Positions 30,629-59,212 of a DNA stretch of 64,000 nt are shown here, piece by piece. Every line of letters starts with the position of its first letter. The first letter of the stretch is position 1. The notes beneath the pieces are model-generated. The model searched no databases. It had not been told where the DNA came from and saw nothing but the letters and a program-made list of their open reading frames with translations. Origin of the DNA: Eledone cirrhosa (Eukaryota); assembly GCA_964016885.1 (NCBI GenBank), contig OZ024743.1:199206001-199270000 (forward strand), read 5' to 3'. A program made the translations under genes and the position numbers.

Positions 30629-30685
<57 letters not shown>

Positions 30686-30812
30686 TGTATATATAGTGTA
30701 TTTTGCAATACACTGTATGCTTAATTAAAAGCATTTCGAAGACCTTACGCTATGGTTTTAGAGTAGTGACAGTCTCACTTACTTTAAATTTTCAGCAAAC
30801 AAGGGGAGATAA

Positions 30813-30857
30813 AGCTGACAGACCTCTGTTTCGTACTTTTTGGTACTTATCAAAGCT
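30813..30857 (-). ncRNA. Type I hammerhead ribozyme, U3-A8 core variant
   Basis: agct-TTGATAA-gtac caaaaa gtac-GAAA-caga gg tctg-TC-agct; all three stems pair, GUC cleavage triplet. Confidence 0.8.
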
Positions 30858-31162
30858 AAGTACTCCACCTGTTTGCTGAAAATCATGAATGTTTGATTCT
30901 TATAGAATTCTAGTAATAATCAGGAACTGATTATACAGAGCGGTTGCCAGTCAAGCAGAAATTGAAAATTTGAATTGGTGCTCTGAAATAGCAAAATATA
31001 CTATATATACATTCATATATATATATCGCTATTTCAGAGCACCAATTCTAATTTTCAATTTCTGCTTGACCGGCAACCACTCTGTATAATCAGTTCCTGA
31101 TTATTACTAGAATTCTATAAGAATCAAACATTCATGATTTTCAGCAAACAGGTGGAGTACTT

Positions 31163-31207
31163 AGCTTTGATAAGTACCAAAATGTACGAAACAGAGCTGA
31201 GTCAGCT
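31163..31207 (+). ncRNA. Second-arm copy of the U3-A8 hammerhead (stem III weakened)
   Basis: agct-TTGATAA-gtac caaaat gtac-GAAA-cagagctgag-TC-agct. Confidence 0.65.
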
Positions 31208-31366
31208 TTATCTCCCCTTGTTTGCTGAAAATGTTAAGTAAGTGAGACTGTCACTACTCTAAAATAATAGCGTATGGTCTTCGAAATGCTTTTAATTAAG
31301 CATACAGTGTATTGCAAAATACACTATATATACATCCATATATATATCGCTATTTCAGAGCACCAA

Positions 31367-31436
<70 letters not shown>

Positions 31437-31441
<5 letters not shown>

Positions 31442-32541
31442 CAAGAAAAAAGAGTAACATGGTTCGCTATATAATAATTATATCTCACATTAGCACTCAT
31501 GATCTATAACAGATGAACGTAATTCTAAGTACATTATCTTATTACTCCTACACTCCTTCAAATCTCACTTTCCTCTTATTTTTATTATGAACATCTCAAT
31601 GTATCCCTAATATTATTCATCATGTTTTCTATAACTATCATGCATATTTTACTATTTTATTACCTGTTTTGTTTCTACTATTATTGCTATTATTATTGTT
31701 TTATTTATACACGATTGGTTATTGATGTTGTGAAAACTAAACCCCCATGATTCGAACTAACAATCCCTACTTTTAGTATAGGCCACTTAAATAATGAATC
31801 TACAACTCCACTTAACACCACATAAAAACTATCAATATCATGAAAATCTTTATATGTCAGACAATAAGGAAATCCCCGGTTTATTGCCAGCACACCTACA
31901 GCAAAGTACACACCTCCTAAATCTTGACCCCAAGTACATTTTAGTTGTCACTGTTATATCTCCGCCACCTTAACACTATATCTAACGTACTCTATAGCAC
32001 TTTTCACATGTCAATTTCATAAATTCTGTATAATATCCGTTCGTTTAACATGCTAGATTCATCATTATACTCTATTTCTTACTTATATTGATGTTATTAT
32101 TTTAGCTATTCACTATCTAGTTATTTTATTTTATTATTGATATTATTGTTCTGGTTTAATACCACTCCTATATAAAAGCCATGCCTTGTGTATATTCTTC
32201 ACTTTCGCGTGCTCTGATGAAAACGACTGGTTATAAACAAAGTATTGGAAATCGATTGACGCAAAATCAGGCGAGTAGCGAGCTCTAGACCGACCAGATC
32301 AACGAAACAATTGTCAGCACTGTGAATAAAGCCCTTATTATACAGCCAGCCATGTTACTCTTATTTCTTGAATTATTATTACTCCAAGTATAAACTACAT
32401 AGAAATCACCGCGAACTCGCAGCATCACTATGGAAACGTCTTGTTGAGTCAAACTAAGCCACACGTTAATACTATCCACTACACAGAGTACTCTAACTGG
32501 ACTACATCTAAGTGGACTGTCTATAAAGATAACCTGTTATC

Positions 32542-32545
<4 letters not shown>
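31437..32545 (+). mobile_element. Penelope-like 3' remnant with 40-bp inverted repeat and degenerate HHR, in (TA)n
   Basis: 31437-31477 is inverted at 32335-32374; TATATAAA at about 32169 precedes CTGATGA (32214) ... GAAA tcga tt. Confidence 0.55.
32207..32262 (+). ncRNA. Degenerate hammerhead ribozyme motif
   Basis: gcgtgct-CTGATGA-...-GAAA-tcga-TT-gacgc; palindromic stem III, but stems I and II pair poorly. Confidence 0.45.
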
Positions 32546-32585
<40 letters not shown>

Positions 32586-32600
32586 GTGTGTGTGTGTATG

Positions 32601-32756
32601 TGTATAGCGGTATAGACATGGCTGTGTGGTGGTTGAGAATTTCACTTCAAAACTGAATAGGTTTGTATTTGGTCCTACTGTATGGCACCATTGGTAAGTG
32701 AAGTCTACTATAGTCTTCAGGCAACCATTGACTTGTGAGTGGTGAGTGAATCTCGT
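32601..32756 (+). mobile_element. Old tRNA-derived SINE, family 3 (inverted twin at 33491-33646)
   Basis: gacatggctgtgtggt...tggcacc.ttgg.aagtg...ctactatag...cttgtgagtgg; a related degenerate copy lies at about 49790-49950. Confidence 0.7.
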
Positions 32757-32784
32757 TATATATATATATATATATAAACGTTTG

Positions 32785-32842
<58 letters not shown>

Positions 32843-32844
<2 letters not shown>

Positions 32845-33432
32845 TATAAAATAACAGGAGGCTGGACTGGTGTAAATCCTTGAAATGTTTATTATACTAT
32901 GATCATTTCAATGACCGGGTTCAGTATGAATCCGGTGACATCATCAGGTATTCAAAATATAACAAAGGAATATAACAGATAAAATCCATGGGGCTGAAAA
33001 TCAGAGACAAGAGGACGACCGACTATTTAGCAGCTTCTACCTCAGTCGGTTGCCCTCGAGTAGAAGCTGCTAAATAGTCGGTCGCCCTCGAGTGAGGTAG
33101 AGGCTGCTAAATAGTCGGTCGTCCTCTTGTCTCTGATTTTCAGCCCCATGGATTTTATCTGTTATATTCCTTTGTTATATTTCGAATGATATCACCGGAT
33201 TCACACTGAACCCGGTCATTGAAAGGATCATAGTATAATAAACCTTTCAAGGATTTACACCAGTCCAGCCTCCTGTTATTTTATAATAATTAACTCCGTA
33301 CTCGCACCACCAATACACAAACGAAGACGGGTGAATTCATTACGTTGAGTACTCTCCTTAATATTACATCGAGATTGACCATACGGAATGATCAGTTCTA
33401 TCCAGTGGTGAACCAACTAACCTAAATAAAAA
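32843..33432. mobile_element. Fold-back HHR-bearing mini-element in (TA)n
   Basis: Arms of about 200 bp (32843-33045 and 33090-33287) are inverted; duplicated centre; about 145-bp unique tail. Confidence 0.85.
32894..32951 (-). ncRNA. Type I hammerhead ribozyme
   Basis: atac-CTGATGA-tgtc accgg a ttca tac tgaa c ccggt catt-GAAA-tgatca-TA-gtat; palindromic stem III. Confidence 0.82.
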
Positions 33433-33490
<58 letters not shown>

Positions 33491-33491
<1 letters not shown>

Positions 33492-33642
33492 GAGATTCAC
33501 TCACCACTCACAAGTCAATGGTTGCCTGAAGACTATAGTAGACTTAACTTACCAATGGTGCCACACAGTAGGATCAAACACAAACCTATGCAGTTTTGAA
33601 GTGAAATTCTCAACCACCACACAGCCATGTCTATACCTCTAT

Positions 33643-33646
<4 letters not shown>
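33491..33646 (-). mobile_element. Inverted duplicate of the family-3 SINE at 32601
   Basis: Reverse complement shares the same truncation point and private changes. Confidence 0.75.
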
Positions 33647-33700
<54 letters not shown>

Positions 33701-33704
<4 letters not shown>

Positions 33705-33745
33705 ATACTTAGGGAGGGTCATGTTGCCAAACAAATTCAGAAACG

Positions 33746-33748
<3 letters not shown>
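33701..33748. mobile_element. 48-bp internally deleted derivative of the 58958-59212 element
   Basis: tgttatactt.gggagggtcatgttgccaa joined to caaattcagaaacgaaa, i.e. both ends of the longer element; flanked by (TA)n. Confidence 0.8.
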
Positions 33749-33797
<49 letters not shown>

Positions 33798-34755
33798 GTA
33801 TGTAACCATATCAGAATTTGATATCAGTTTTATCAAATAGAAAACGAAAAAAACAAATTTTCTACAGTTAAGCTGGGTTTTTATCAAGCAAAAATATAAA
33901 ATAAAATTAAATGAAAAACATATATAACATACAAAAGCATATACTTATCTTTCTTGTTAATGTCAATAAACACACACATGAGTGCAAATGTTCATACATT
34001 ATTTTGATGTAAGGGTCAGGGATATAAAAACACAGTGGTATAGCATGGTTATATGGAATTTAATATTTCAAAGCCCACCCAATACTAGATACTGTGTTAG
34101 GATATAAGAGAACATTTCAATCAGGTATATCAAACAAGAATGTTCTCAATGTATTTCCAACTACACATTCTTAAAAGGGAAAGCTTTTACCTATGTACAC
34201 AGATAATTTTGTATGTTTTCATATTAACGTGTGTGTATGTATATATGTAAGTATGTATGTGCATATATGTATGTATATATGTATGACCATAATTTTGTAT
34301 GTATGTATGCACATATGTATGTATTTAAAAATTACCAGAAATCATTATAACATAAATTCAAACATCATTTTATCAAATAAATGTAAAAAATTTAAATGCT
34401 GTTTGTATATAGGGGGAAAAGATAGGAAACAGTGTACACAGATATATTAATATATAGCATTCTTCCTGTTCATAAATACACACACACACACATATATATA
34501 GATACATATAGATAGATAGATAGATAAATGATAGATAAGTAGTTAAATACATACATATTTACATACATATGTACATATATAGATGCCTACATACATACAT
34601 ATATGTATAAACATATATGTATAAATGTATTCTGAGTTTTTTGAATATTAATAATAACATTCGATTCGTTTGCAATTATGAGAAGAAGCCTCATTTTTAA
34701 AGACATGTCAGTAGAATGAACCCTTCATTCTTGCTCTTGTGTTGGCATGTAAACA

Positions 34756-34805
34756 GAACTGCAGAAACTAATGTTTCTGGGTATCACCCTTCGTCAGTAC
34801 AGCTC
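34756..34805 (-). ncRNA. Hammerhead ribozyme motif (stem III degenerate)
   Basis: gagctgta-CTGACGA-a gggt gat accc a-GAAA-cattagtt-TC-tgcagttc. Confidence 0.65.
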
Positions 34806-35016
34806 ACTGTTCACCTGCCAACTGTCAAAGCTCGTATACAGGAAACTGACTGGCCAGTCTGCTGATATGCAAATCTGGCTGATCAATGGATCTGCTATTA
34901 TGCAGATCTGACTGATCAGCCAGTCTGCTAATATACAAATCAAGCCAATCAGTCACAGTATATTTTAGAAAATAGCATATATTTTCACTAGCTCTGACAG
35001 TTGGCAGGTGAACAGT

Positions 35017-35066
35017 GAGCTGTACTGACGAAGGGTGATACCCAGAAACGTCCGAGCCTGCAGTTC
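35017..35066 (+). ncRNA. Second-arm hammerhead motif (cleavage triplet mutated)
   Basis: gagctgta-CTGACGA-agggtgataccca-GAAA-cgtccgag-cc-tgcagttc; 8-bp stem I. Confidence 0.55.
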
Positions 35067-35444
35067 TGTTCACATGCCAACACAAGAGTAAGAATGAAGG
35101 GTTCATTCTACTGACATGGCTTTAAAAATGAGGCTTGTTCGCATAATTGCAACGAATTGAATGTTATTATTAATATTCAAAAAAATCAGATTACATTTAA
35201 TGTATACAACCATGTAGAGCGAAAAAAATATATATATATATAGTAATAATAAATGTAAAGACTTTAATCTGTGAAGACTTATAATAAATATATATATTTA
35301 TATATTTATTGTCGAGCTAATTTAAATGTGTAAACCCGGCTGCTATTTTTAGCAGCATATGTTTATGAGACATTCTAGGTTCTGATGCCATGTGCATTAT
35401 TTCATATTTGCACACTATTCAGTCTTAGAAATGGAGGGATTACT

Positions 35445-35528
35445 AACGTTTACACCTGAAGAGCAGAAAATTGGTAATTTCCTTAGCTAAATAAATTGCG
35501 AAACAGCTACCAAAGCTGTCTGGATGTT
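35445..35528 (+). ncRNA. Hammerhead ribozyme motif
   Basis: aacgtttacac-CTGAAGA-gca...tgc-GAAA-cagct accaa agctg-TC-tggatgtt; strong stem III and GUC triplet; stem I appears to have lost 3 nt on its 3' side. Confidence 0.7.
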
Positions 35529-35783
35529 TCAGGCAGTTGCCCAATATAGGTTTGTTCTTCTTTTTCTTGATTTATTACTTTAAATTGAGTCTGACGAACC
35601 ATATTGTTATAGTTAGTATTTTTTGCACCCTAGTGAACATGGTCCTTTACAATTAGAACACATGTATGTTTATATTTGTGTTTATCTCTCTTGTATATTC
35701 AATTATATTAAACGGCTCAGAAAAAAACTTCTTTCTTTGAGCTATTTAATTGTAAGAGACTATTTTGAGTTTCTAACTCAATA

Positions 35784-35858
<75 letters not shown>

Positions 35859-36199
35859 TATATATATATACATACTTACATACATATACTATCCTTATTG
35901 TATGCCAATTTCACCATACATGCAATCATTGGGGAGATTATCTCCAGCATAGGCTCTCAGCACTTTTTTGTGGTCACTCATCAACTCCTTCATGTGGTTC
36001 AGTATCCTGCATCCAGCTTTCAATTATGTCTTCTGTCTTCTCCAAAAAGTACATCTTTACTTCAACTGTCATTCTCCATACACATCACATGTCTTAACTC
36101 AGTCTTTACTTGTACACACTTCAATTGATTCCTTTTATAATGTTGCAGTCACATTCTTTTGTACAGCTTCATTCACTCACACTAACTGTATATTTCCAG

Positions 36200-36930
36200 T
36201 GATAAAATAAAGTACTTGTCTGGTCGTTTATTTCGAACCCCAGAAGTTAATCCCATTGAAGTCAGTTTAGCCTTTCACACATCTAGTATCAACAAAATAA
36301 AGTACCAGTAAAGTAATGGGATCAATTGTTTTAACTTTACTGACTATCCATGTTAGCCTGGAAAATGGACTTTAAATGATGATAATGACGTCTCTCTAAA
36401 TTTCCTTGTCTTGTGCCTAACTTAGAAACCAAATAACAATCAAATAATAACATATATACAATGTCTGAGATTAATAAGTCTCAAAACTATATTTTCTAAA
36501 CATTATGTATGTAGGCAATGGATTAGTAGTATCGGTAGAGTGTTGGACATCAAGCTTTGCAGTATAGAGTTACGACCCTTTAATGTCTGAGTTCAAATAC
36601 CACCAAGGTTAGCATTGCCGTTCATCCTTACAGGGTCGATAAAATAAAGACCCCGTAATGTTCTGGGTTTGATTTAATCGAATTTCCCCTCCCCTAAAAT
36701 TGTTGACCTTGTACCGAAATCAGAAACCATTATGTATGTAGACATAGGGCCCAGTAGTTAAGATGTTGAACTTGCAATCATAATGTTGTGGGTTTGATTT
36801 CTAGATAAAGTGTACATTGTCCTCTTGGGCAAAACACTTCCTTTTATGTTCCTCCAGTACACAGTACACTCAACTGAAAATGAGTACCAGCTGTAATGAG
36901 CACCAGAGTTAAGCCAGCAATGGACAACCA
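36200..36930 (+). mobile_element. Old SINE cluster (family 1 at about 36230-36430 and 36514-36732; family 2 at about 36740-36930)
   Basis: Degenerate consensus motifs. Confidence 0.7.
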
Positions 36931-37180
36931 ATGAAAAATGAAACCAGGAGAAAAAACACCAGCCTGATCAGCCTGATGGCTTGGAACAAACTTCAACTTT
37001 TTAACTATGAATGTAAGATATATGAAAAATGACTGAGTTATGTAAAAAACAGGGAGCCGAAGGGTGGATCAAAGTTGAAGTTGTTTACTTTGGTCCCTAA
37101 AATATAACCAGAAATATGAATAAACAAAGGTGCAATGCAAAAGAAATAAAACACAAACAAACAAGAAATACTTTTTGTAG

Positions 37181-37308
37181 TTTGGTTGAAAATAGATGCA
37201 GACAGAATGAAAGTTAGAGGTATCCTGTTTTACAGTGAACTCCAACGGGGTTGGAGCAAAATCACAAACGTAGAATCAGAAAACCTTAAGGGGCCACAGG
37301 GAACAGCA
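37181..37308 (+). other. Candidate host coding exon (unidentified)
   Basis: ctttttgtag acceptor, open frame WLKIDADRMKVRGILFYSELQRGWSKITNVESENLKGPQGTA, gtaagt donor; non-repetitive sequence. Confidence 0.3.
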
Positions 37309-37458
37309 GTAAGTCTAATTCTGATTCATTTCTTACATTGTTTCTAGATTTTGTTACAATAAATAAGACACACACCATAAAGTATGTGTGTATATATGTA
37401 TGTCAATGTTTGTGCATACACACACATACACACATATATATATATATATATATACATA

Positions 37459-37508
<50 letters not shown>

Positions 37509-37566
37509 CATACATAGACATACATGTATATAGATATATAAATATACACACACACACACACATATA

Positions 37567-39035
37567 TCATCATCATCATCATCATCAGCGTTTAACGTCC
37601 GTGTTCCACGCTTGCATGGGTTTGGACGGGGGTAGTCCCACTTGAGGCAAGAGTGATTGTCTTGCTCGCATAGGACTGTCTGGCAGGTTTTCTACAGTTG
37701 GATGCCCTTCCTAACACCAACCACATTTACAGTGTGGGTCTGGGAGGTTTTTACCGTGTTGCCTACACGGCCACATTACAGCGTGGACTGTGTGTTTTTT
37801 TGTCGTGACACCTACACGATCTCATTTGTTTCGGCCTCGATGGCGCGGCACCAACATAACTTTACATAGAACGGGGTGGTGTGGATCGGGTGGGGGTGGT
37901 GGGACGGGGTGTATTTGTTAGAGATGCCTACTGGCTGGAGTAGGTTTTACTATATATTTAGGTAAGGCGGGTCTTCTCTGTTACTGAGTACCGCCAAAGG
38001 TCTCGGTCCAGTGACATTGTCTTGGAGAGGTGTAAGTGTGTGATGTCGGAGTTTATCGGCTCGTCCCAGGTTTTTCTAGGTCTGCCTATTCCGTGACTAC
38101 CGTCTATCTTTATTGCCCTGCACTTTGTTATACAGCTATCGACTTTCATGCGCATCACGTGTCCATACCAACGTAGCCTTCTCTCGAGTAAACAACATCT
38201 GATCCCTCTTATCTCTAATTTATTCCTTAGTTCGTTTATGCTTTGCCGTTCACGTATATTACTGTTACACATCCAGCGGAGCATGCAAGCTTCGTTCCTC
38301 TCTAGTCTGCGTATATCCTCTGCACACAATGCCCAGGTCTCACTGCCATGCAGCATTGCTGTTCGTATGCAGGCATCGTACAACCTGCCTTTCATTTTTA
38401 GTGAGAACCCTTTAGCAGCTAATAGTGGTATAAGCTCTCTGAACTTTTTCCAACCAGTTCTGACTCTAGCTACAGTACTTTCAGAGCACCCTCCCCCACT
38501 GCTGATTTTATCGCCCAGGTAACGGAAGCTGTCCACTATTTCTATAGAACCCTCTGCGCAATTGAAAGAGCTAGTAGTTTGTGGGCACTTGCTGCTACTT
38601 ATTGCACCAGAGCACCGGCCACATGTAAAATCTATGTTCTTAGTTAGCCTACCTGTGATCCCACTACATCTTTTATGCACCCATACTTTGCATTTAGGAC
38701 ATAAAATGGAGTTTCTACCTACGCCTTTCCTACACACCGAGCACGACCATTTCCCAGAAGGGACCGCCGCCTTGTTTTCTTTCCTACAAACTAGTACTTT
38801 GGTCTTAGCCAGGTTAATTTTAAGTCCTTTTGACTCTAGGCCGTGCTTCCATGTTTGGAATTTCTTCTCTAGCTCGGCCATTGATTCCGCTATGAGTGTC
38901 AGGTCGTCTGCGTATAGGAGTTCCCATGGGCAGCCTGTCTTGAACTCCTCTGTTATGGCCTGAAGGGCAATAATAAATAGTAGTGGACTGAGAACAGAGC
39001 CCTGATGGACGCCGACTTTTACGCTAAACTCTTCA
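37567..39035 (-). mobile_element. Young 5'-truncated RTE LINE; uninterrupted RT C-terminal ORF 37958-39035
   Basis: GVHQGSVLSPLLF, LLYADD, INLAKTK, Cys/His PHD-like insert, FRYLG, RLRWYGHV, GRPRKTW; 3' UTR and (ATG)n tail. Confidence 0.95.
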
Positions 39036-39079
39036 CATATACATATATACCTATATGCACACATATATATACACACATT

Positions 39080-39117
<38 letters not shown>

Positions 39118-39699
39118 CACACACACATACATATATATGGGGGGGGGGGGATGATATTGCAGTAGTGAGAGTAAGGAAAACCAAAACTTCCAATGTGTCT
39201 CACAGATAAAACAAATGACAAAAAAAGAAACTGTAGATTTGAGAACATTTTTTTCTTATTTCTTATAGAGATCAAAACACTGTCCAAGTTTCATCTAAGT
39301 CTCAGTTGTGTTCTCTTTTTGTATTATCGTTTTCTTTAGATTTCTTATATATTAAAATTGTTGGTTTATAGAATATCTTATAATATATATTATATTTTAT
39401 ATTCTATATTATAGTGTATTATAATATATATTATTTTATATTATGTATTATATTGTATTATAATATATCATATATATTATATCACAATATATATCATATT
39501 ATATTATAATATAGATTCTATTATATTTTAATATATATCCTATTATATTACAATATGTTATATTCTGCCAGGGGTTACGATCATTAAATAGTGTCAGCAT
39601 AAGAAAGACTAGTGTAAACATAGTTTCCTTCATCTGATTCAATGTTAAGCCTCTTTCCTTTCTAATATATTACGTTGCAGTATTTTGTATAGTATTATA

Positions 39700-40240
39700 T
39701 TCATCATCATTTTATGTAGATTTTCTATGCTGGCATGGGTTGGATGGGTGGTAAATGTCTGAGACAAAACATGGTCAGCTTACCATGTATTGATTATACA
39801 TTTCATATATTGGCATGATTTCTACACTTGTATGCCCATCCTAATTCGAACTACGTAATCAACTGCATTTTATCAGGGCACTTTACAGTGTGTACCAGAT
39901 GCATTTCATTGCTTTACTAACACTACCACTTTATAGTATGTCATTGGTCTGATTTCATTATCAGATCCTTTCCTTTCTTATATTATATTAAGGGTGCATT
40001 TTATTGTGGAGCCAGCACTATCACTTTACAATGTGTTCTGTGAGAATTTTATTGTGACACCAGGACAATCATTTTTCAGTATGAACTGTTAGCATTTTAT
40101 TGTGGCTCCAGGACAATCATTTTACAATGGCTCGTGTGAGCATTTTATTGTGGAGCCAGTACTACCACTTCACAGTATGTACTGGGTGCATTTTATCATG
40201 TCACCAGCACTACCAATATAGAGCATGTATGGAACACATT
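39700..40240 (-). mobile_element. Old RTE 3' UTR remnant with about 40-bp tandem units
   Basis: catcatcattttatgtag..gctggcatgggttggatgg tail; repeated cattttattgtgg..ccag.ac...cacttta units. Confidence 0.6.
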
Positions 40241-40254
40241 TTATTATAAGGATA

Positions 40255-40795: not shown

Positions 40796-41038
40796 ATATT
40801 GTACTATATTATATTATGTTATATTATACTATATTGTATTATATTATATTATATTACATCCTGCTTGTTTATTAGTTGTCTACTAGTTTTCCTTGGAAAT
40901 ATTTTTTCGTTTATGCATTGAGGCAAGTTTTGTAGAAAACACAACAGTTATTTTTATTTTCTCTGCTTTACATGTTTTTCACAATTTTTTTTATTTATTC
41001 ATTCCTATATTATTTTCATATATATACATATATTAATA

Positions 41039-41081
<43 letters not shown>

Positions 41082-42245: not shown

Positions 42246-42334
42246 ATGATCCTCTAACCTGATCTCTCCAAAAGGATCCAATCCAATCTAGTATGGAAAT
42301 TGGACGTTAAACAATGATGATATATAAATACATA

Positions 42335-44903
42335 TCATCATCACCGTTTTACGTCTGTTCTTCCACACTAGCATGGGTTAGACGGGTTGTCCTGTTATGG
42401 GCAGTGTCCGGTCGGCTGACCTTGTCTTGCTCATACGGGAACCGATTCTGGCTTGATTTCTACAGCTAGATGCCCTTCCTAACACCAACCTCATTTACAG
42501 TGAGTGCTGGGTGCTTTTTTTCCATGGCTCCTACACATCCACTTTACAGTGTGGGCTGGGTACTTTTTGCCGTGGCACCTCCATGACCACTTTGCAGCGG
42601 AAGGGTGTGGAGGCATATTGTCTATATGCATATTGCTTATATGCATATTGTCTATATGTCTATATGCTTCAGCTTCAGCTTGTACCCCTGGGGGGTTGGG
42701 TCTCCTGTATTACTGCGTGACGCCAGAGGTCACGGTCACGTGTCATCGCCTTTGAGAGGTGTAAGGGTAAGGTCGGCTTTTATCACCTCATCCCAGGTCT
42801 TCTTGGGTCTCCTCACTCCGCGGTTTCCATCGACTTCTACTGCTTTGCACCTTTTTATGCAGCTGTTATCCTTCATACACATCACATGTCCATACCAATG
42901 CAACCGCCTTTCCTGCACACAGCATTTGATTCCTCTTATGCTCAGTCTATCTCTCAATTCATTTTTGCTTTGCCGTTCGCGTATATTACTATTACACATC
43001 CATCGGAGGATGCAGGCTTCTTTTCTTTCTAATCTACGCAAGTCTTCCACAGAGAGCGCCAGGTCACACTACCATGTAACATTGCTGTTCGTATACACGC
43101 ATCATACAGTCTGCCTTTCATTTTGAGGGAAAAGCCTTTTGCGGCTAGCAGTGGCTGTAGCTCCCTGAACTTCTTCCATCCCGTTCTTACCCTAGTTATT
43201 GTACTTTCCGAACACCCACCTCCGCTGCTACTTCGGTCACCTAGGTAGCAGAAGCTGTCTACTGTTTCTACAGAGCCCTCTCAGAGTTTGGTGGTACTTG
43301 TTTCCTGTGGCCGTTTGCTGCTTGCTGTCCCAGCGCAGCTGCTACATGTGAAGCCTACATTCTTAGTTAAGCTTCCTGAGATTCCACTACATCTCTTGTG
43401 TACCCAATTTTTGAATTTGGGGCAGAGGATAGAGTTCCTACCTACACCTTTCCTACATACTGAGCAAGGCCATTTCCCTGAGGGATTCTGGGTTCTGTTT
43501 TCTCGTCTACTTACGAGGACCTTAGTCTTTGTCAGGTTGACTTTGAGACACTTTCTTTCTAGTCCCTGCTTCAAAGTTTGGAATTTCTTCTCTAGTTCTA
43601 CCATAGATTCAGCTATAAGTGTGAGGTCATCAGCATACAGGAGTTCCCATGGGCATCCGGTCTTAAACTCCTCTGTTATTGCCTGCAGGACTATGATGAA
43701 CAGGAGGGGGCTAAGAACAGAGCCTTGGTGGACACCAACCTGTACGCTAAATTCCTCGCCATACTCATTGCTAATCCTAACTTTGCTGACTGCTCCCCCT
43801 ATACATGGCTTGTACAGCTTTCAGAAGCCATTTATCTACTCCTAGTTTTCTAAGAGCCCACCAAATTATAGCACTTGGAACTCTTTCAAAGGCTTTCTCG
43901 AGATCGACGAATGCCAGGTAGAGTGGCTTACTTTTAGCTAGGTACTTTTCCTATAACTGCCTCACAAGGAAGAGGGCATCAGTGGTGCCTCTTCCTGGCA
44001 CAAACCCAAATTGCATCTCATCTAGTTTCACCCGGTCCCTAATCAACTGTGCTATAACACTTTCTGTTACTTTCATGAGCTGGTCCATCTGCTTTATACC
44101 TTTATAGTTTCCTCTATCGAGTGCATCACCTTTACCTTTGTAGCACTTGACAATGATGCTACTGCACCAATCCTTTGGTATGACACCTTCTAGTATTACC
44201 TGGTTAACAATACGTGTGGTTATGGTGTGACCTACCGACCCAGATGTCTTCAGCATCTCGGCAGCTATACCTGATGGACCAGTTACCTTCCCCGTCTTCA
44301 TATCTTTGACTGCCTTATTTACTACGCTGCTTCTGACTTGTACTGGTGGTCCCTCTATAGGGTCTACTTGGGGTAGGGTCTCTTCTTCCCATGCATTCTC
44401 CTCATTTAGTAATCTATCATAATGGCTCTTCCATGCATCTTTCTTCTCAGCACTTGTGAGGGCAAGCACACCTTTATCATTCCAGATACACTTCTCTCCA
44501 ATGACATCACAATTCTCTCTGACACACTGCCACGCAATCTTGAACACCTCCTGTTTCTGGTCCTCACGTTGCAAAACATGCTTGAATTTTCTATCCTCTG
44601 CTTCCCTTCTAGCTAAGTATACTTGTCGCCTAGCTTCCCTCCTGGTCTTTATGTAATATACTCTCCTTCCCCCGTTCTTCCATTCTTTCCATGCCTGTCC
44701 CTTGGCCTTAACTGCCTCATCTACCTTATTGTTCCACCACTATGTCACTCTCCTCCTGCCTGTGGTCTTACTCCAGCCACAGATCTCATCCATCGCCTTT
44801 AGTAAGTTATTTGTTAGGAACTCTACATTGAATATCTCTATCTGTTCTTCTTTACTGTCATAGGCGTTGAGTAAAATATCTTTAAATCTGTTACTGCCTG
44901 AGG
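42335..44903 (-). mobile_element. 5'-truncated, decayed RTE LINE spanning the linker, RT and 3' UTR
   Basis: MKTGKVTGPSGI, YKGKGD, QFGFVPGRGTTDA, FVDLEKAF, GVHQGSVLSP and YADD (about 43627) across broken frames. Confidence 0.95.
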
Positions 44904-45715: not shown

Positions 45716-45770
<55 letters not shown>

Positions 45771-50900: not shown

Positions 50901-52303
50901 TGTATATATATATGTATGTATATACTCATTAATACAACAACAGGACATTTGCTACTCATCAATAACTATATTGTTAGTATCATTATTAGTGGATGGATTA
51001 TTGTGAAGATTTGCAGTATTGGAGTGGGGACTTTGATTTTATTAACTCACAACTAATAAAAAAATAAAATCACATGACCAATCATAGCTCTAGTTCCAAA
51101 ACTACAGTACTGTGGGATGTAATTAGGTGTATCACAAAAGAGTAAACTCCTATTTTAAAATTATGAAAATTGCAAAGTAAAACTGTAATAAAGTTCATAT
51201 ATAACTGATAAAATGAGAAACAACTAAACTAGGAACGAAAATATTGTTAAAAATACAACCCACCAAGGACATGTTTCTCATTGATGTCTTTGCTCCATTG
51301 ATTAATTAAATAAGAAAGTACAAATAATTTTTCTATATTTAAATTACCCATGTTCTTACTTTATGCTATGCAAATATGTATAAATACTTATTTTGAAAAA
51401 ATTTTCAAAATTAGGTACAAAGTGCATACTTGTTCTAATAGACCCTGTGAATAATAAAAAGATTTGAGAACCAGATGATAAGTAATTTCACTGGCTTAAT
51501 TACTCCAATGACTAACCCACAGATGCAGTCAGTTTTTGTGCCTCTTCTATCCATGCTACAATAGAAATGTTATTTGTTGAAGGAAAATCCTAGTCCAAAT
51601 TGGTTTCAATCAAGCCATAAAGTGAGATGCTCTTCGTCCAGTGCTATCCTATGTTTGGCATTGTATGTTAAGGTCTGAACATATTAATACAATAAAGGAA
51701 CCCAAAGTATGAAACAAAAGCTCTCAATCAGAAACATTAAGAGCACAATTCTATTGCTGAAAACTCAAGGTCACTGAATTTCCTGATACCATTTTCATGA
51801 CAATGACATCAAATAATTTCTCTCCAGGACTTTCTTTATCTACAATTATACAGAATATGGTATAAAAAAAAATAAAACTACAGAAATCATTTCCTCCTTT
51901 TCTTTTGAATACTTTTTCCTGGAACCTGTATCTGACAAGATTGCAAATGAGTAGAGTAAGTATTCTCAAAGAAGAAAACTCTAAATCTGTATTCCAAATT
52001 GTTGATGATGCCATGAAAATTATCTCATATAAAGAACACATTCTACCCCAGGAGATGTTTATATCAAGAAAACTTAGGAGACAATGAAGACAAAGAAAGA
52101 AAAGACATTCCACGGAATTAAAACCTAATTCTTACCAAGAACGGTTTAACGAAGAAACAAACAACACCTTTTCTGTATCTTTTCTGTCTTTTATTCCTCT
52201 GTTATATTTTTATCTTAAAACAATGGGTGTTAACAATATTTTTCAATTATCTCTATAAAGTACGCTTAATAAATACATGTGTGTGAGTGTGTGTGTGTAT
52301 AAA

Positions 52304-52348
<45 letters not shown>

Positions 52349-52388
52349 ACATATATATATGTGTACGTATATATATATATATATATGC

Positions 52389-52425
<37 letters not shown>

Positions 52426-52435
52426 TGTGTGTGTG

Positions 52436-52501
<66 letters not shown>

Positions 52502-52911
52502 TATATATATAATATATATATAGGTGTGCACATGACAGGGAATTTGTTGGGATTCCTCCTATCTAAGCATGATCAACATGTATCTACCAGAGGGCGTATT
52601 AGTTCATATTGAGTTATCACCCTTCTAATGTTCTCACTAATCCTGATAACAATAATGAAATCAAATGAAATAAATTGAAATACAAAACTAAAACAAAACA
52701 ATATTACATGTTTTGTGGTACAAGATTACTGAAAACAAAAGTTTTTCTTAGGAATCGAGTTTAGAAATAAAACTATTGCGATAAGTATATGGATTTCTAG
52801 AACATTATATATTTATATGTGTATATATGTATGCTGATATATATATACACATACAGATATAGACATATGTGTGTATATATTAATATATATATATACGTAT
52901 ATATAGATATA

Positions 52912-53620
52912 AAAAATGAAATTTCATTTCTCACTCTTAGTACGGCTGATACTTAAATCTAAGTATGTATACATACATACATATATGTGTACAGATGTAC
53001 ACTAGTATGTATATACATACATATATGGACACATATATATATATGTACATATGTGGGTTTACCAAACATTTATTATAATACTCGGTACATACGTACATAT
53101 ATATATATATATGTGCATGTATGTATGTATATACATACTAGTGTACGTCTGTATACATATACGTATGTACGTATACATACTTATATTTAAGAATTAGCCA
53201 TACTACGAGTGAGAACTGAAATTCCATTTTTTACATTTATCGTTTTCGGTACGCCCAGACGACTAACTCACTTGATATGTAAATTAGGCTTCTCAGCCGT
53301 TAATATGCATAAGGAAAGTATATACTTTCAAACGTTTAATTGATTGACAGGAAGGTATACGATGCTGATGACAGCTAATAAGCTTGAAACTAGTTCATCG
53401 TTCCTTACTCAGTGTTGAACAAAAAGGTGAAGATGGTTGCCGAACACTGTACGGCGTAATTCGGGCTGTTTGTTTACAAACAAACCCAGCATTATAATAA
53501 ATGTTCAGTTAACCCATACGTACATATATATATATATATATGTGTGCATGTATGTATGTATATATACATACTAGTGTACGTCTGTATACATATATGTATA
53601 TACGTATACATACTTATACA
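52912..53620 (+). mobile_element. HHR-bearing mini-element: inverted 5' segment plus 427-bp unit plus partial second unit
   Basis: catacgtacat...actagtgtacgtctgtatac starts at 53088 and again at 53515; 52912-53085 is an inverted copy spanning the unit junction. Confidence 0.8.
53359..53401 (+). ncRNA. Minimal type I hammerhead ribozyme
   Basis: acgatg-CTGATGA-c agct aata agct t-GAAA-ctag-TT-catcgt; perfect 6-bp stem I and palindromic stem III. Confidence 0.85.
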
Positions 53621-53933
53621 TATATGTATATACGTATACATACTTATACATATATATATATGTACATATATATATACATAAATGTATATGTACATATATA
53701 TATATATATATATATATGTACATATATATATATATACATAAATATATATGTACATATATATATACATATATATATATACATAAATATATGTATATACATA
53801 TATATATATACATAAATATATATGTACATATATATATACATGTATATATATATATATATATGGACATATATATATACCTATATATATCTATATATATATA
53901 TGTATATATATATATACATATATATATATGTAC

Positions 53934-53966
<33 letters not shown>

Positions 53967-53972
53967 CATACA

Positions 53973-54006
<34 letters not shown>

Positions 54007-54107
54007 CATACATGTATATATATATATATATACATGTATATATATATATATGTACATATATATATATATATGTACATATATATATATATGTACATATATA
54101 TATATAT

Positions 54108-54597
54108 GCGTATGAAGGATGACAGCTGCATAAAAAGGTGCAGAGCACTAGAAGTTGATGGAAACCGCGGAGTGGGGAGACCCAAGATGACTTGGGATGA
54201 GGTGATAAAAGCCGACCTTACCCAACTACACCTCTCAAAGTCAATGACACACGACCGTGACTTCTGGCGTCACGCAGTAATACAGGGTACCCGACCTCCC
54301 ATGGGTACATGCTGAAGCATATAATCAATATGCCCCCCCCGTGGAGGTGCCACGGCAAAAAAGCACCCAGCCCACACTGTAAAGTGGACGTGTAGGCGCC
54401 ACGAAAAAGCACCCAGCACTCACTGTAAATGAGGTTGGTGTTAGGAAGGGCATCCAGATGTAGAAATCAAGCCAGATCAGTTCCTGTATGAGCAAGGCAT
54501 GGTCATCCGACCAGACACTGCCCACAACAGGACAACCCGTCTAACCCATGCTAGCGTGGAAGAACGGACGTAAAACGGTGATGATGATGATGATGAT
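54108..54597 (+). mobile_element. 5'-truncated RTE LINE 3' end
   Basis: [11 protein letters not shown]...[11 protein letters not shown]; UTR closely matches 42335-42870; (ATG)n tail. Confidence 0.92.
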
Positions 54598-54745
54598 GTA
54601 CATGTATATATGTGTGTGTCCGCATGTATCTGTGTGTTTCTAAATATATTGTTATATATATATATGTACATATATATATATACATATATATATATATACA
54701 TATATATATACATATATATATATACATGTATATATATATATATAT

Positions 54746-54786
<41 letters not shown>

Positions 54787-54817
54787 TATATATATACATA
54801 TATATATATATATGTAC

Positions 54818-54851
<34 letters not shown>

Positions 54852-54855
54852 GTAC

Positions 54856-54936
<81 letters not shown>

Positions 54937-54997
54937 TATATATATATACATATATATATATATATGTACATATATATATATACATATATATATGTAC

Positions 54998-55035
<38 letters not shown>

Positions 55036-55061
55036 GTACATATATATATATATATATGTAC

Positions 55062-55097
<36 letters not shown>

Positions 55098-55290
55098 GTA
55101 CATATATATATACATATATATATATATGTACATATATATATATACATACATATATATATAAGGGAGAGAATTGGGAGTGTGTAACACTCCACTTATCAAA
55201 TAGAGAGTATATGGTTAGCTCAATGTCAGAGGACAGAGCCGTAATACAATTAACAACAAAGAGCGCTTAGAACATAGGTATATCTTTAAT

Positions 55291-55336
55291 TGCTAACAGT
55301 GTTTCGTCCACACTAGAAGTGGGACTCTTCAGAGCA
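55291..55336 (-). ncRNA. Type I hammerhead ribozyme in a roughly 210-bp insert (55160-55370)
   Basis: tgct-CTGAAGA-gtcc cac ttcta gtg t ggac-GAAA-cactg-TT-agca; stem I is extended by tcttta/taaaga. Confidence 0.85.
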
Positions 55337-55393
55337 TAAAGAGTAAATACAAAGTGTACAAGCATTGACATATATATATATATATGTACATAA

Positions 55394-56100
55394 TATAGCT
55401 CTGATTTATCTGAATTATTGAGCCCTCTGCCACTCATGTCGAATTTTGTTTATCGTGAACTCGTGCGCCGATTTTTCGATACTCGATTATTCTACTATAT
55501 TTAGCTCTAGACTTAGCTATTGACCAGTTAATTTTATTGTTCATTTTTTGTCGATTCTATTAAATGATGAATAGCTCCTGTTTATTTTAACATGTCTATT
55601 GAGCACTCTTATTCGATATGTGATTTTCCACATTCCCGAATATTTTTCGCGGATATAGAGGTTATCTCCCTTGCTGGATTCCATGTGCGTTTTCAGCTAG
55701 GGTTGGCTTTTTTATTCGTCTGGACAAAGCTCGTTGATAAAGTATTTCCTATCCGCCGCTCTCTAGAAGTCTTATATATTTTTATGTGGGCTGATAGTGG
55801 GCGGTTTAAGGATTTACAGAAACCCAAGAAGCTAGATTTACCATCTTTCTAGTGGGTCCGGGTAAGCTTTTTACGTTCACATGATTTATTGATTTATTGA
55901 TATTTTATCTGAGTGACCCGAATCTTCCTGATCGTAATTTTTCGGTCGTATGGTTGATTTTAGACATAATCTATGTGTGTTGATATTTTAACGATAGTTA
56001 TAGCTCTGATTTATCTGAATTATTGAGCCCTCTGCCACTCATGTCGAATTTTGTTTATCGTGAACTCGTGCGCCGATTTTTCGATACTCGATTATTCTAC
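55394..56100. mobile_element. 707-bp unclassified element with identical 102-bp terminal direct repeats, in (TA)n
   Basis: 55394-55495 equals 55999-56100; CpG-rich relative to the flanks; no recognisable ORF. Confidence 0.75.
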
Positions 56101-56101
56101 C

Positions 56102-56133
<32 letters not shown>

Positions 56134-56229
56134 GTACATATATATATATATGTACATATATATATATATATATATATGTACATATATATATATATATGTA
56201 CATATATATGTACATATATATATATGTAC

Positions 56230-56272
<43 letters not shown>

Positions 56273-56637
56273 TGTACATATATATATATATGTACATATA
56301 TATATGTATATATATATATGTACATATATATATGTACATATATATATGTACATATATATATATACATATATATATATGTACGTACATATATATATATATG
56401 TACATATATATATATATGTACATATATATATATATATATGTACATATATATATACATATATATATACATATATATATATATGTACATATATATATATATA
56501 CATATATATATACATATATATATACATATATATATACATATATATATATACACATATATATATACATATATATATATACACACATATATATACATATATA
56601 TATATATACACATATATATATACATATATATATGTAT

Positions 56638-57332
56638 ATCATCATCATCATCATCAGGTTTAGCGTCCGTGTTCCACGCTTGCATGGGTTTGGACGGGGG
56701 TTTTCCCACTTGAGGCAAGAGTGGTTGTCTTGCTCGCATAGGACTGTCTGGCGGGTTTTCTACAGTTGGATGCCCATCCTAACACCAACCACATTTACAG
56801 TGTGGGGCTGGGAGGTTTTTACCGTGTTGCCTACACGGCCACATTACAGCGTGGACTGTCTGGCGGGTTTTCTACAGCTGTATGCCCTTCCTAACACCAA
56901 CCACATTTACAGTGTGGGGCTGGGAGGTTTTTACCGTGTTGCCTACACGGCCACATTTACAGCGTGGACTGTGTGTTTTTTTGTCGTGACAACTACACGA
57001 TCTCATTTCTTTCGGCCTGGATGTTGTGGGACCAACATAACTTTACATTGAAAGGGGCGGTGTGGATGGGGTAGAGGTGGTGGGACGGGGGGGTGCTTTG
57101 ATAGAGATGCCTACTGACTGTAGTAGGTTTTTACTTTGTATTTAGGTAAGGCGGGTCTTCTCTATTACTGAGTACCGCCAAAGATCTCGGTCCAGTGACA
57201 TTGTCTTGGAGAGGTGTAAGCGTGTGAGGTCGGAATTTATCAGCTCGTCCCATGTTTTTCTGGGTCTGCCTACTCCGTGGCTACCGTCTATCTTTATTGC
57301 CCTGTACTTTGTTATACAGCTGTCGTCTTTCA
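56638..57332 (-). mobile_element. 5'-truncated RTE LINE 3' end with a tandem duplication in the UTR
   Basis: MKDDSCITKYRA...GRPRKTWDEL...KTRLT*; a UTR block of about 110 bp is duplicated (56742 and 56853). Confidence 0.92.
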
Positions 57333-57443
57333 TGTATATATATATATGTATATATATATGTATATATATATGTATATATATATATGTATACATATATATA
57401 TACATATATATATACATATATATATATACATATATATATATAC

Positions 57444-58825
57444 AAACTTAAAAGAACCAACACGGCTCTCTCAGAACTCATATGGTCCTTGAAAGACAAA
57501 AACATTAAATATACCATCTTTTGGAAGAAGGTTTCTTCTGCATCCTCATACTTGAACAGCTCTCTATCTAAAATCTGTAATCTCTGCCTAAATGAAAAAT
57601 TTAGCATTATCTCTAACCTAGATTCTATAATAAATAGACGTACAGATTTGTTTTCTATCTGCCTGCATAAATTCCATAGGACTTTTCACAAAGTATACAG
57701 TTAATATTCAATTCTTTATCAATTTAGAATCTTTTCTCAAAGGCACATATACATACACCTCTTTAAAATATACCCATCTTCCTACCTTACTTTAAAGGGC
57801 ATTATACACTCTATAATACTTGTTTACCCTCTTTCTATCTTCACCTTGTAAAATCCTTCATAACATATACATTTGTTTTTTTGACGTTAGAATATTCATC
57901 CGCAATCATTATTATTTTTTCTCTCTATCATAAAACTTTTTAATCTCAATTTCATCCTTAATTTTTTTTTTTTTCTCCCCATCAACGAACTCATTCTTAA
58001 TACATATTAACTCTTTATTCGCATATATTATCAATTCCTTCAATATACAAACTTTAACTTCACATTATTTTTCTCAAATCCTTCTACACACAAACCTTAA
58101 TAATTTTTCTCTTCGTTAATTTTGAAATTGCCACAATACTTATCAACATACACTTTTTTTGACGTTAGAATATTCATCCACAATTATTATTTTTTCTCTC
58201 TATCTTCATACATAAATTCCCTTCGTTAATTTTCAAATTCCTTTAATTTATACATTATCTTCCAACGGTTCTCAACCTCTCTATGCAAAAACAATATATC
58301 TTTTTCTCAGTTATAAAAACTATCTCTTTCTCTCTATCACCCATCTCTCCCTCTCCACCTTCACTCTCATCTCCTCCCCCTTTTTTCATCCTTTCCACCC
58401 CCCCCTCCCTAAATAAAATATTTTTTCCTCGCACATATCCTCCCTTCGTTAATTTTCAAATTCTTTTAATTTATACATTATCTTCCAACGGTTTTCAACC
58501 TCTCTATGTAAAACAATATATCTCCTCTCAGTTATAAAAACTATCTCTTTCTCTCTATCACCCATCTCTCCCTCTCATCTCCTCCCCTTTTTCATCCTTC
58601 CCCCCCCTCTCTAAATAAAATATTTTTCCCAATATCACACATCAATCTAAAACCACTTTTCATATGTTGATTTAAAACTGCACTATCCACAAGTGTTTTT
58701 TAGCCTTCATATCATGTTCTCCTGTTTTATCTGATGAAAACACAAATATTATTGCATGATGATGTTTGTTTTTGAAATGCGCATAATAAAATACATGGAA
58801 CTCCTTTAACCATCTTTTGATCTTA
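57444..58825 (+). mobile_element. 5'-truncated Penelope-like (Neptune-type) element: GIY-YIG endonuclease C-terminus, long 3' UTR, terminal HHR
   Basis: TALSELIWSLKDKNIKYTIFWKKV...CNLCLNEKFSII...INRRTDLFSICLH* (stop at 57702-57704); UTR with internal duplications; flanked by (TA)n. Confidence 0.85.
58723..58793 (+). ncRNA. Type I hammerhead ribozyme of the Penelope-like element
   Basis: tgttttat-CTGATGA-aaac acaaatattatt gcat gatgatgtttgt tttt-GAAA-tgcgca-TA-ataaaata; 12-bp stem II with G-U pairs; palindromic stem III. Confidence 0.88.
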
Positions 58826-58847
58826 TATTATACATATATATATATAC

Positions 58848-58902
<55 letters not shown>

Positions 58903-58915
58903 TATATGTATATAC

Positions 58916-58946
<31 letters not shown>

Positions 58947-58957
58947 CATATATATAT

Positions 58958-59212
58958 TGTTATACTTTGGGAGGGTCATGTTGCCAATAAGAAACACACG
59001 CACCAGTTGCTTTCACTTCAATTTATTATAATAAATTTATAATAAATTTATATATTTCTGGTCGGTTGGTTGGTTCCACAACCAGATAGTTGTTTATATA
59101 TTGTCATAGTTCTTTCGTCACACACTCTGTGACCTCTTCAGTGACAGGGGATTCCTTTCTTTGTTTTTGTGCCTCTCCTTTGTTCTGTCCTACGCCAAAT
59201 TCAGAAACGAAA
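58958..59212 (-). mobile_element. 255-bp HHR-bearing mini-element in (TA)n
   Basis: Sharp (TA)n borders; same ends as the 33701-33748 derivative. Confidence 0.75.
59102..59146 (-). ncRNA. Minimal type I hammerhead ribozyme
   Basis: tgtca-CTGAAGA-g gtcaca gagtg tgtgac-GAAA-gaac-TA-tgaca; perfect stems I and II, minimal stem III. Confidence 0.82.

Follow-up and report, generated by a model that had tools for sequence, protein, structure and literature searches.

Hammerhead ribozymes in (TA)n islands of the Eledone cirrhosa genome: ends of Penelope-like elements and non-coding retrozymes probably copied in trans

How did one stretch of DNA come to hold hammerhead ribozyme motifs of many unrelated families, each in its own island beside a (TA)n microsatellite? 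The stretch is a 64,000-nucleotide (nt) window of the Eledone cirrhosa genome (GenBank assembly GCA_964016885.1, contig OZ024743.1, positions 199,206,001 to 199,270,000 of the forward strand; positions below count from its first letter). A sequence-only reading had proposed a local community of hammerhead mini-elements, either solo pseudo-long terminal repeats (pLTRs) or non-autonomous ribozyme elements, mobilized by a Penelope-like element (PLE). Comparison with genomic copies leads us to favor, with a probability of about 0.82, islands that are separate products of retrotransposition by PLE proteins, comprising truncated copies of autonomous PLEs and non-coding retrozymes copied in trans. 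The proposed PLE link, inverted and partial-tandem architecture, non-autonomous ribozyme elements and TA preference were all supported across genomic copies.

Hammerhead motifs and the elements that carry them

The window has 35% guanine plus cytosine (GC), dense microsatellites, fragments of long interspersed elements (LINEs) with reverse transcriptase (RT) domains, and repeats resembling short interspersed elements (SINEs). It contains 12 hammerhead motifs in 10 families (A, B, C, D, E, F, G, H, I and X). The 11 motifs listed previously are all present at or beside their coordinates, which are the ends of stem I; a twelfth (X, 55729–55863, +) had been missed, and the families number 10 rather than 8. 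A type I descriptor recovered 8 cores, compared with 0.36 ± 0.59 in 100 block-wise dinucleotide shuffles, the control that the earlier reading had called for. With a wider descriptor, defined by the core C3(U3)UGAN G8(A8)A...GAAA...UH and three helices with stem I open, there were 9 matches, against 0.78 in shuffles (maximum 2, 40 shuffles). Two of the 9 look like chance and 7 are family motifs (A−, B−, F, G, X, H and I), so that 7 of the 12 window motifs satisfy this descriptor. The same seven are intact relative to their family majorities. Damage is found in A+ and C− (stem III mismatches), C+ (loss of U16.1) and D (a deletion in stem I); in the plus arm of B the first core box is gone. The common core claimed for all motifs holds for the majorities of A, B, C, D, F, G, H and I and for X, but not for E, whose hammerhead is degenerate family-wide: stem I is weak, and the canonical GAAA box is absent in 17 of 19 copies and present in 2.

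The Rfam hammerhead models (RF00163, HH9 and HH10) gave no window match at the gathering score. Scanned alone by E-value, three of the 12 motif regions matched hammerhead models, all below the cut-off (HH9, 24.5 and 19.1 bits; Hammerhead_1, 18.4 bits), the best reaching 24.5 of 52 bits. Genome-wide, 18 of 74 scored candidates exceeded the RF00163 cut-off. Among the matches listed from an E-value scan of the whole window (150 of 458), all were microRNA models on microsatellites. Stem covariation, also predicted, was present in the X superfamily (20 sequences) and in sister families of A, F, G and H, with altered stems and C3–G8 and U3–A8 exchanged, but not among young copies within a family. 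The hammerhead motifs are real, and their self-cleavage in vivo is predicted from sequence. At the islands near 33840, 52520, 51300 and 59880, descriptor and Rfam scans revealed no convincing hammerhead.

For each family, 8–27 loci were inspected, always the best matches to the window copies and so biased towards young insertions, a few being duplicates of one insertion. Genome DNA searches yielded 1,038–3,395 first-look candidates per family, of which 40 each were scored; these are rough values and not copy numbers. Within this sample the families fall into two groups. In the window, E, G, H and I are each the 3' end of an autonomous PLE truncated at its 5' side; E, G and H belong to the Hydra type and I to the Neptune/Nematis type. 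With 4 of 10 families of this kind, the label of solo pLTRs or non-autonomous elements is not supported for all of them; likewise, the islands are non-coding in the window except for that of H (tblastn), yet E, G and I are ends of elements that code elsewhere.

Family H (57444–58832, +) is a truncated Hydra-type PLE with a C-terminal endonuclease (57444–57701), a 3' untranslated region (UTR) and a pLTR; its coding fragment is the end of an open reading frame (ORF) of 821 amino acids (aa), with 97.7% identity. Its hammerhead lies at 58723–58793 (+, descriptor), and hammerheads occur in both direct and inverted pLTRs of the family. The RT–endonuclease ORF is open in all 8 loci fetched for long frames (821 aa in 7, 820 in 1). 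The motifs RWT, DKT, CNCRIKNKC, CNLC and CLH, with no CCHH, were read from the translation and agree by eye with those of Hydra-1_Obim. The protein had no significant Pfam match; its Atlas neighbors carry HTH_animal, GIY-YIG and RVT_1 families. Family E (31439–32545, +) consists of 3' UTR and pLTR, placed by self-match, with an inverted stub (31439–31477) and a degenerate hammerhead-like motif (32207–32262, +) that family alignment shows to be mostly GAGA with weak stems. A Hydra-type endonuclease (CNCHLPDKC, CRLC, CRH) lies upstream in two loci (L154, L155), in which only the endonuclease part was observed. Family G (55161–55370, −; hammerhead 55291–55336, −, descriptor) is the pLTR of an autonomous Hydra-type PLE with a 3' UTR of ~2.5 kb. 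Its layout in locus L173 is TA, inverted pLTR, ORF, 2.5-kb UTR, pLTR, TA, and L163 likewise has inverted pLTR, ORF, UTR and pLTR. RT and endonuclease share one frame, interrupted by a stop in L173, with a weak GIY-YIG match (E 0.01) and the motifs DKT, CNCRRASGC and CNLC. These motifs and by-eye comparison with references suggest the Hydra clade for H, E and G.

Family I (58957–59212, −; hammerhead 59102–59146, −, descriptor) is a pLTR with a 15-nt inverted distal end. The upstream endonuclease, with a CX4CxxC linker (CIDKKCITC), CCHH residues and DKSG, suggests a Neptune/Nematis-type element (RVT_1, E 0.0004); the protein had no significant BLASTP match to that of H. A ~50-nt insertion at 33701–33748, matching 58932–58987 and 59196–59265, consists of two RT-start ends of family I only and lacks a ribozyme. 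Elsewhere, on C1 at ~212 Mb, one family I insertion with its flank has been duplicated four times (L057, L058, L066, L067), with an A6-to-U core change in all four. A Naiad or Chlamys identity of the PLEs, which would entail an N-terminal endonuclease and no canonical hammerhead, was ruled out, as the endonucleases are C-terminal and hammerheads are present.

The sequences of A, B, C, D, F and X identify them as non-coding head-to-tail units, that is, as non-LTR retrozymes. Unit lengths are 321 nt (A), 429 nt (F), 438 nt (C), about 516 nt (D), 605 nt (X) and 2077 nt (B); the periods of C, D and F derive partly from partial tandems, and the F boundaries are approximate. Units of A, C, D, F and X have 33–38% GC, and the predicted folds of their monomers are more stable than those of shuffled sequence (z of −4 to −9). 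Family A (30683–31372) is a head-to-head insertion, its left arm reaching the proximal RT start and its right arm the distal one (inverted self-match 30590–31438, 91%; tandem period 311–327 nt in 6 loci). Hammerhead A− (30813–30857, −; HH9 24.5 bits as above) has a U3–A8 core (UUGAUAA), a long extended stem I and predicted cleavage after 30817, and A+ (31163–31207, +) carries damage in stem III when compared with the palindrome of the family. Family B (32845–33430), also head-to-head, is formed by the ends of the 2077-nt tandem element; in L156 two units are 99.9% alike, with no tblastn match to six PLE protein pieces. Hammerhead B− (32894–32951, −) has a palindromic stem III, a U.U pair at the base of stem II and predicted cleavage after 32898. 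The B palindrome is flanked by two inverted copies (91%) of a ~200-nt SINE-like repeat (32546–32821, 33433–33700). The inverted duplication thus extends into the flanks, possibly as transduced flank or a later foldback duplication.

Family C (34622–35228) is head-to-head, delimited by self-match and tandem period, with both hammerheads damaged (34759–34802, −; 35020–35063, +). Family D (35318–35787, +) was defined by its tandem unit and ends; its hammerhead lies at about 35450–35527 (+), with stem I damaged in the window copy. Family F (52870–53625, +; tandem period ~429 nt) includes an inverted 5' piece and a hammerhead with palindromic stem III (53359–53401, +; wider descriptor). A 466-nt tandem retrozyme-like unit 67% similar to F was seen at ~2468–2934 (−) of L003. 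The flanks of L050, L064, L081, L017 and L018 contain perfect head-to-head palindromes of further families in TA, several with U3–A8 or palindromic-stem hammerheads.

Start sites, TA junctions and mobilization in trans

The 3' ends of the copies cluster at two sites, which lie ~144 and ~171 nt from the cleavage site in A, ~56 and ~196 in B, ~143 and ~178 in C, ~187 and ~260 in D, 119 and 286 in E, 51 and 134 in G, ~45 and 134 in H, and 161 and ~214 in I; X has a single site, at 247 nt. Head-to-head insertions use the two sites in a complementary manner. Of 63 examined, 54 had one proximal and one distal end, one had two proximal ends, one had two distal ends and 7 were unassignable. The rule of one site per end thus holds in 54 of 56 assignable cases (P = 2e-14 against 0.5), and 25 cases are retrozymes, all from A, B, C or D. 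Excluded from the count were F, whose own unit is TA-rich, X, which lacks inverted arms, a B locus picked in error and a D locus that was a duplicate. Because both orientations occur in A, C, D, H and I, the rule is not a query artefact. The pattern is visible within the window itself in A, B, C, E and I, as well as in the 33701–33748 insertion. Alternating A/T at the modal start sites averages 4.0 nt compared with 2.2 nt (14 sites), a weak sign of microhomology priming.

Sequence variants give a further view of the inverted arms. In A, B, C, D, F, H and I we compared how often non-majority variants are common to the two arms of an insertion and how often they are common to different loci. The values were 8 versus 1% in A, 22 versus 5% in B, 21 versus 7% in C, 18 versus 3% in D, 14 versus 5% in F and 17 versus 11% in H. 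Such sharing, 3–8-fold in A, B, C, D and F and 1.5-fold in H, fits one template copied twice. The 5' ends did not accumulate at the cleavage site: 3 of 87 fell within ±3 nt of it, roughly the number expected by chance. Cleaved linear monomers are therefore not the visible template, and uncleaved multimers and circles both fit.

The TA-bordered islands seen in the window recur across the genome. Over all families, 127 of 149 3' ends run into (TA)n; for random positions the figure is 12.3% in these loci and 8.4% in the window. By family, the counts are 16/18 (A), 12/14 (B), 10/14 (C), 10/13 (D), 12/13 (E), 8/14 (F), 11/13 (G), 23/24 (H), 18/19 (I) and 7/7 (X). Among them are a few insertions that occur as duplicates and two B ends that were picked in error and scored as misses; no end was obtained from 3 of 27 H loci, and the E count is of direct ends only, with 13/14 if one inverted arm is included. 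In the DNA sampled, none of 98 insertions could be matched to an empty-site counterpart.

The one-site-per-end insertions of the retrozymes resemble a PLE footprint pointing to mobilization in trans, and it is because the non-coding families follow the same two-site rule that they are tied to PLE proteins. In the model that we prefer, a PLE protein with RT and GIY-YIG endonuclease would cut at or in (TA)n, and reverse transcription would be primed inside the RNA template at one of two fixed sites, 40–290 nt past the hammerhead cleavage site, which usually carry 2–10 nt of alternating A and U. Priming on a single target strand would yield a 5'-truncated or partial-tandem copy, and priming on both strands, one at the proximal and one at the distal site, a head-to-head insertion with TA on both sides. 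On families A, C, D, F, X and the long B, PLE proteins would act in trans, with a circular RNA or an uncleaved multimer as template. Multimeric transcripts are probably cut by the hammerheads into monomers, which a host ligase would circularize; hammerheads with a short palindromic stem III (B, F, H, I) may act as dimers and those of A, D and X, with stems long enough, as monomers. For nicking, priming chemistry, cleavage and circles, the model draws on the literature on related systems.

Several observations weigh against this model. The windows that define the two sites were drawn after the data had been viewed. Tandem pairs of H have fewer variants in common than copies at different loci (6 versus 11%), the variant-sharing test gave nothing for I, and the arms within one insertion diverge almost as much as copies between loci. 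Inverted arms were found in none of 8 dispersed X copies, unlike in other families, and X may use another route. No sequence similarity was detected between any retrozyme unit and the four autonomous pLTR/UTRs. In six retrozyme families the hammerhead fold lies 1–10 kcal/mol above the minimum free energy. In the literature, PLE hammerheads cleave poorly in vitro (PMC4209133), 8 of 9 Xenopus retrozyme dimers tested stayed uncleaved (bioRxiv 10.64898/2026.07.22.740005), and cleavage is dispensable for insertion of the PLE PAc in vitro (PMC11167929). Finally, only 14 of 34 direct-only copies have their 5' junction in TA.

This last asymmetry, set beside TA at 85% of 3' ends, would also be expected if the PLE RT itself laid down or lengthened TA by telomerase-like slippage on an AU stretch, so that elements seed (TA)n and do not only target it. 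The AU micro-templates at the start sites agree with such seeding, as do the four duplicates of the family I insertion, whose adjoining TA runs of 14, 70, 46 and 14 nt indicate that short seeds can grow. We nevertheless consider it unlikely. At 41%, TA is found at 5' junctions roughly three times as often as in the background, (TA)n is given as the insertion preference of almost all Hydra families (PMC8557442), and tails of RTE-type LINEs also adjoin TA (28 of 52; SINE ends, 3 of 36), so pre-existing TA is targeted by other elements. TA is a landing place common to several kinds of element.

The abundance of RTE LINEs and the TA sites that they have in common with the retrozymes raise another question, that of whether the six non-coding families are satellite-like, or moved by RTE or other LINEs, and amplified mainly by unequal crossing-over, with hammerheads as relics. 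A long X array on contig C263, the near-identical B tandem, which recombination explains too, and cleavage sites lacking a 5'-end pile-up would all be accommodated. We hold this to be quite improbable, as the 3' ends of dispersed copies are fixed and their 5' ends random, their inverted arms follow the PLE two-site rule, the retrozymes are without the TCA/ATG tails of RTE, and X subfamilies with a mean column identity of 66% still preserve the core and helices.

Less probable still is that every island is a solo pLTR or truncated end of an autonomous PLE whose full-length form went unsampled. This does hold for E, G, H and I, only 8–19 loci per non-coding family were inspected of 1,000–3,400 first-look candidates, and one C copy (L086) sits behind an I-like 3' UTR. 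However, elements of A, B, C, D, F and X continue from the 3' end into their own 5' part, closing the unit head-to-tail, and no common upstream PLE ORF was found in the sampled loci of these six families. Chance matches in AT-rich sequence, for which the lack of window matches at the Rfam gathering score and the two random-looking wide-descriptor matches might speak, are already refuted by the shuffle nulls, conserved family cores, covariation and a reversed X pattern with no matches against 1139.

With separate retrotransposition products of PLE proteins as the preferred reading, the rule of 54 in 56 limits models of inverted PLE structures and is compatible with a coupled dimer. Arguments on what moves animal retrozymes have so far come from co-occurrence and trees; a PLE-specific footprint on non-coding families makes the question testable, and young intact 821-aa proteins in the same genome permit a direct test.

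The large U3–A8 hammerhead of family X

Family X (55391–56101, +), recognized by self-match and array, is a young retrozyme (98–99%) consisting of the 605-nt unit plus a ~105-nt repeat. Its hammerhead, recovered by the wider descriptor, combines a U3–A8 core with stem II and stem III regions of 78 and 34 nt, respectively, has a mismatch at the base of stem II and is predicted to cleave after 55858. The exact pattern occurs at 604 + 535 = 1139 places genome-wide, in many subfamilies, and a reversed control at none. Across 20 sequences picked for diversity, 88.7% of cells in the helices are paired, 4 of 16 pairs change on both sides, and slid controls reach 26–49%. None of 500 shuffles, which ignore relatedness, attained the paired fraction or the covariation score. 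Two other readings of the unit were rejected. A second, type II hammerhead at a CUGAUGA hairpin lacks a GAAA box, and a relative breaks C3–G8; and the view of X as a ribozyme-free element gave way once wider descriptor limits revealed the U3–A8 hammerhead.

Before the transcript is extended, the hammerhead fold stays within 1 kcal/mol of the minimum. On extension, the 3' strand of stem I is instead paired to a conserved segment 40–60 nt downstream, a fold that is favored by 2.8 kcal/mol. RNAalifold also chose this competing helix, and one subfamily alters both partners together. The downstream helix may therefore be an off-switch that acts after co-transcriptional cleavage, as we infer from the folding. 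X ribozyme and helix form a compact candidate for a self-inactivating hammerhead. How retrozyme circles escape re-cleavage is left open in PMC7229834.

A broader joint reading strikes us as doubtful, if not out of reach. In it, a dimeric PLE protein would act on one RNA with two mutually exclusive fixed priming sites, and in trans on at least six retrozyme families, generating ~10^5 hammerheads; it might also extend TA tracts and so be a source of microsatellites. The X superfamily would be a new large U3–A8 type that cleaves only in a brief co-transcriptional window, before the downstream helix takes the stem I strand. If true, the helix would be a built-in off-switch, explaining how a retrozyme circle avoids re-cutting itself.

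The array on C263 (G000:C263:20874-28811) contains at least 13 head-to-tail units with TA at both ends. Its 3' end is normal and its 5' end truncated, as might result from a single long round of reverse transcription. Near 55495–55575, just past the RT start site, the X unit has a long hairpin with a 3x3 internal loop. This hairpin is kept nearly letter for letter among relatives of 67–80% identity and is a candidate protein-binding element. X is also present in contigs of three sequencing runs of unidentified kind; two of these show loose TA ends at the same 3' junction, which says nothing on expression.

Genome-wide abundance and relation to known systems

The density of hammerheads in the window is a genome-wide condition and not that of a local community. 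In a small sample of 20 evenly spaced 10-kb stretches (200 kb) from C1, C2, C5 and C6 there were 21 descriptor matches, against 1.9 in shuffles, or ~96 per Mb compared with 128 per Mb in the window. The special local reservoir proposed earlier is not upheld, as this density is close to the genome average and RTE-type tails too adjoin TA. As for enrichment beside TA, (TA)6 lies within 320 nt downstream of 15 of 21 sampled motifs, with 7.8 expected from the same loci. Scaled to 3.0 Gb, the rough estimate is 2.9 x 10^5 motifs (bootstrap, 1.4–4.7 x 10^5). Descriptor matches in all fetched loci form 21 clusters that are each represented in at least two loci, including a few false ones. The estimated range exceeds the 126,247 hammerheads of the axolotl (PMC7229834), the largest count in the compared literature, and Rfam detects almost none. 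About 9,000 are reported for Xenopus tropicalis, thousands per genome in PMC4209133 and 235 Rfam matches for the giant squid (PMC6962438). The word 'ribozyme' does not occur in the accessible text of a 2026 octopus repeat annotation (PMC13282606).

Much of the original idea is in print (PMC8557442, PMC4209133, PMC7229834, bioRxiv 10.64898/2026.07.22.740005). Hydra PLEs with hammerheads in octopus (TA)n have been published (PMC8557442 supplement). The clade is defined by a C-terminal GIY-YIG, DKT, RW(K/T), a CxCX5C linker, CxxC and CxH, with no CCHH (Craig et al. 2021, PMC8557442). Its members, including Hydra-1_Obim of Octopus bimaculoides, have the same motifs, 3' hammerhead and (TA)n insertion as our families, and many published Hydra hammerheads have an unpaired pair at the base of stem II, like those of B, C, F and X. 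The present families are several, distinct, young and high in copy number, with hammerheads unlike that of Hydra-1_Obim in sequence. They are also longer than the usual Hydra element, which tends to be <3 kb (PMC8557442): the period of H is 3703–3864 nt (3.7–3.85 kb), and G exceeds 5 kb.

Retrozymes and their PLE origin have likewise been published (Cervera and de la Pena 2020, PMC7229834; Li et al. 2026, bioRxiv 10.64898/2026.07.22.740005). Metazoan non-LTR retrozymes described there are also non-coding, of low GC (below 45–50%), head-to-tail, strongly self-paired and PLE-associated, with one type I hammerhead per unit. A, C and F fall inside their size range of 150–450 bp; D, X and B are longer, at up to 516, 605 and 2077 nt. 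Those of E. cirrhosa are mostly of 1–2 units and have inverted 5' arms in (TA)n. The accessible text of the two sources reports no microsatellite targeting or RT start sites. The minimal hammerheads of PLEs (Cervera and de la Pena 2014, PMC4209133) resemble ours in their palindromic short stem III, the U3–A8 variant, an extra base between 9 and 10.1, as in family I, and opposed pairs 100–700 bp apart. X differs from them by uniting U3–A8, 78-nt stem II and 34-nt stem III regions and a conserved downstream competitor.

The two-site pattern, too, is already known qualitatively, and its count and extension to non-coding families come from the present analysis. The Poseidon PLE PAc has two internal RT starts, AT-rich double-strand cutting and a predicted dimer in vitro (Frangieh et al. 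2024, PMC11167929), and a 'tail' is described on one of two inverted PLE pLTRs (Arkhipova et al. 2013, PMC3846280), all like here. The sites in E. cirrhosa are 30–170 nt apart and mostly show short AU microhomology, whereas those of PAc are non-homologous and AC-rich; and they are complementary at the two insertion ends, non-coding families included, whereas PAc in vitro has no strand difference (PMC11167929). New here are the scale, the complementary two-site rule linking retrozymes to PLE proteins, and the X-type ribozyme. No description of octopod retrozymes, the X-type ribozyme or a complementary-site count was found in the literature searched, and subscription papers, Repbase/Dfam and preprint supplements may cover them.

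The rest of the window contains other mobile-element remains. Two transposase-like fragments at 8623–10395 presumably resemble hAT/Buster proteins; Pfam gave no match for 9403–10392. A frameshifted LINE-like region at 13337–18364, with 47–56% GC, has gag-like, endonuclease-like and RT pieces (RVT_1, E 2e-30). RTE-type LINE fragments with RT and a PHD-like finger lie at 37527–39199, 42334–44739, 30043–30586, 54106–54588 and 56640–57334, and their TCA tails and truncation points are located in (TA)n.

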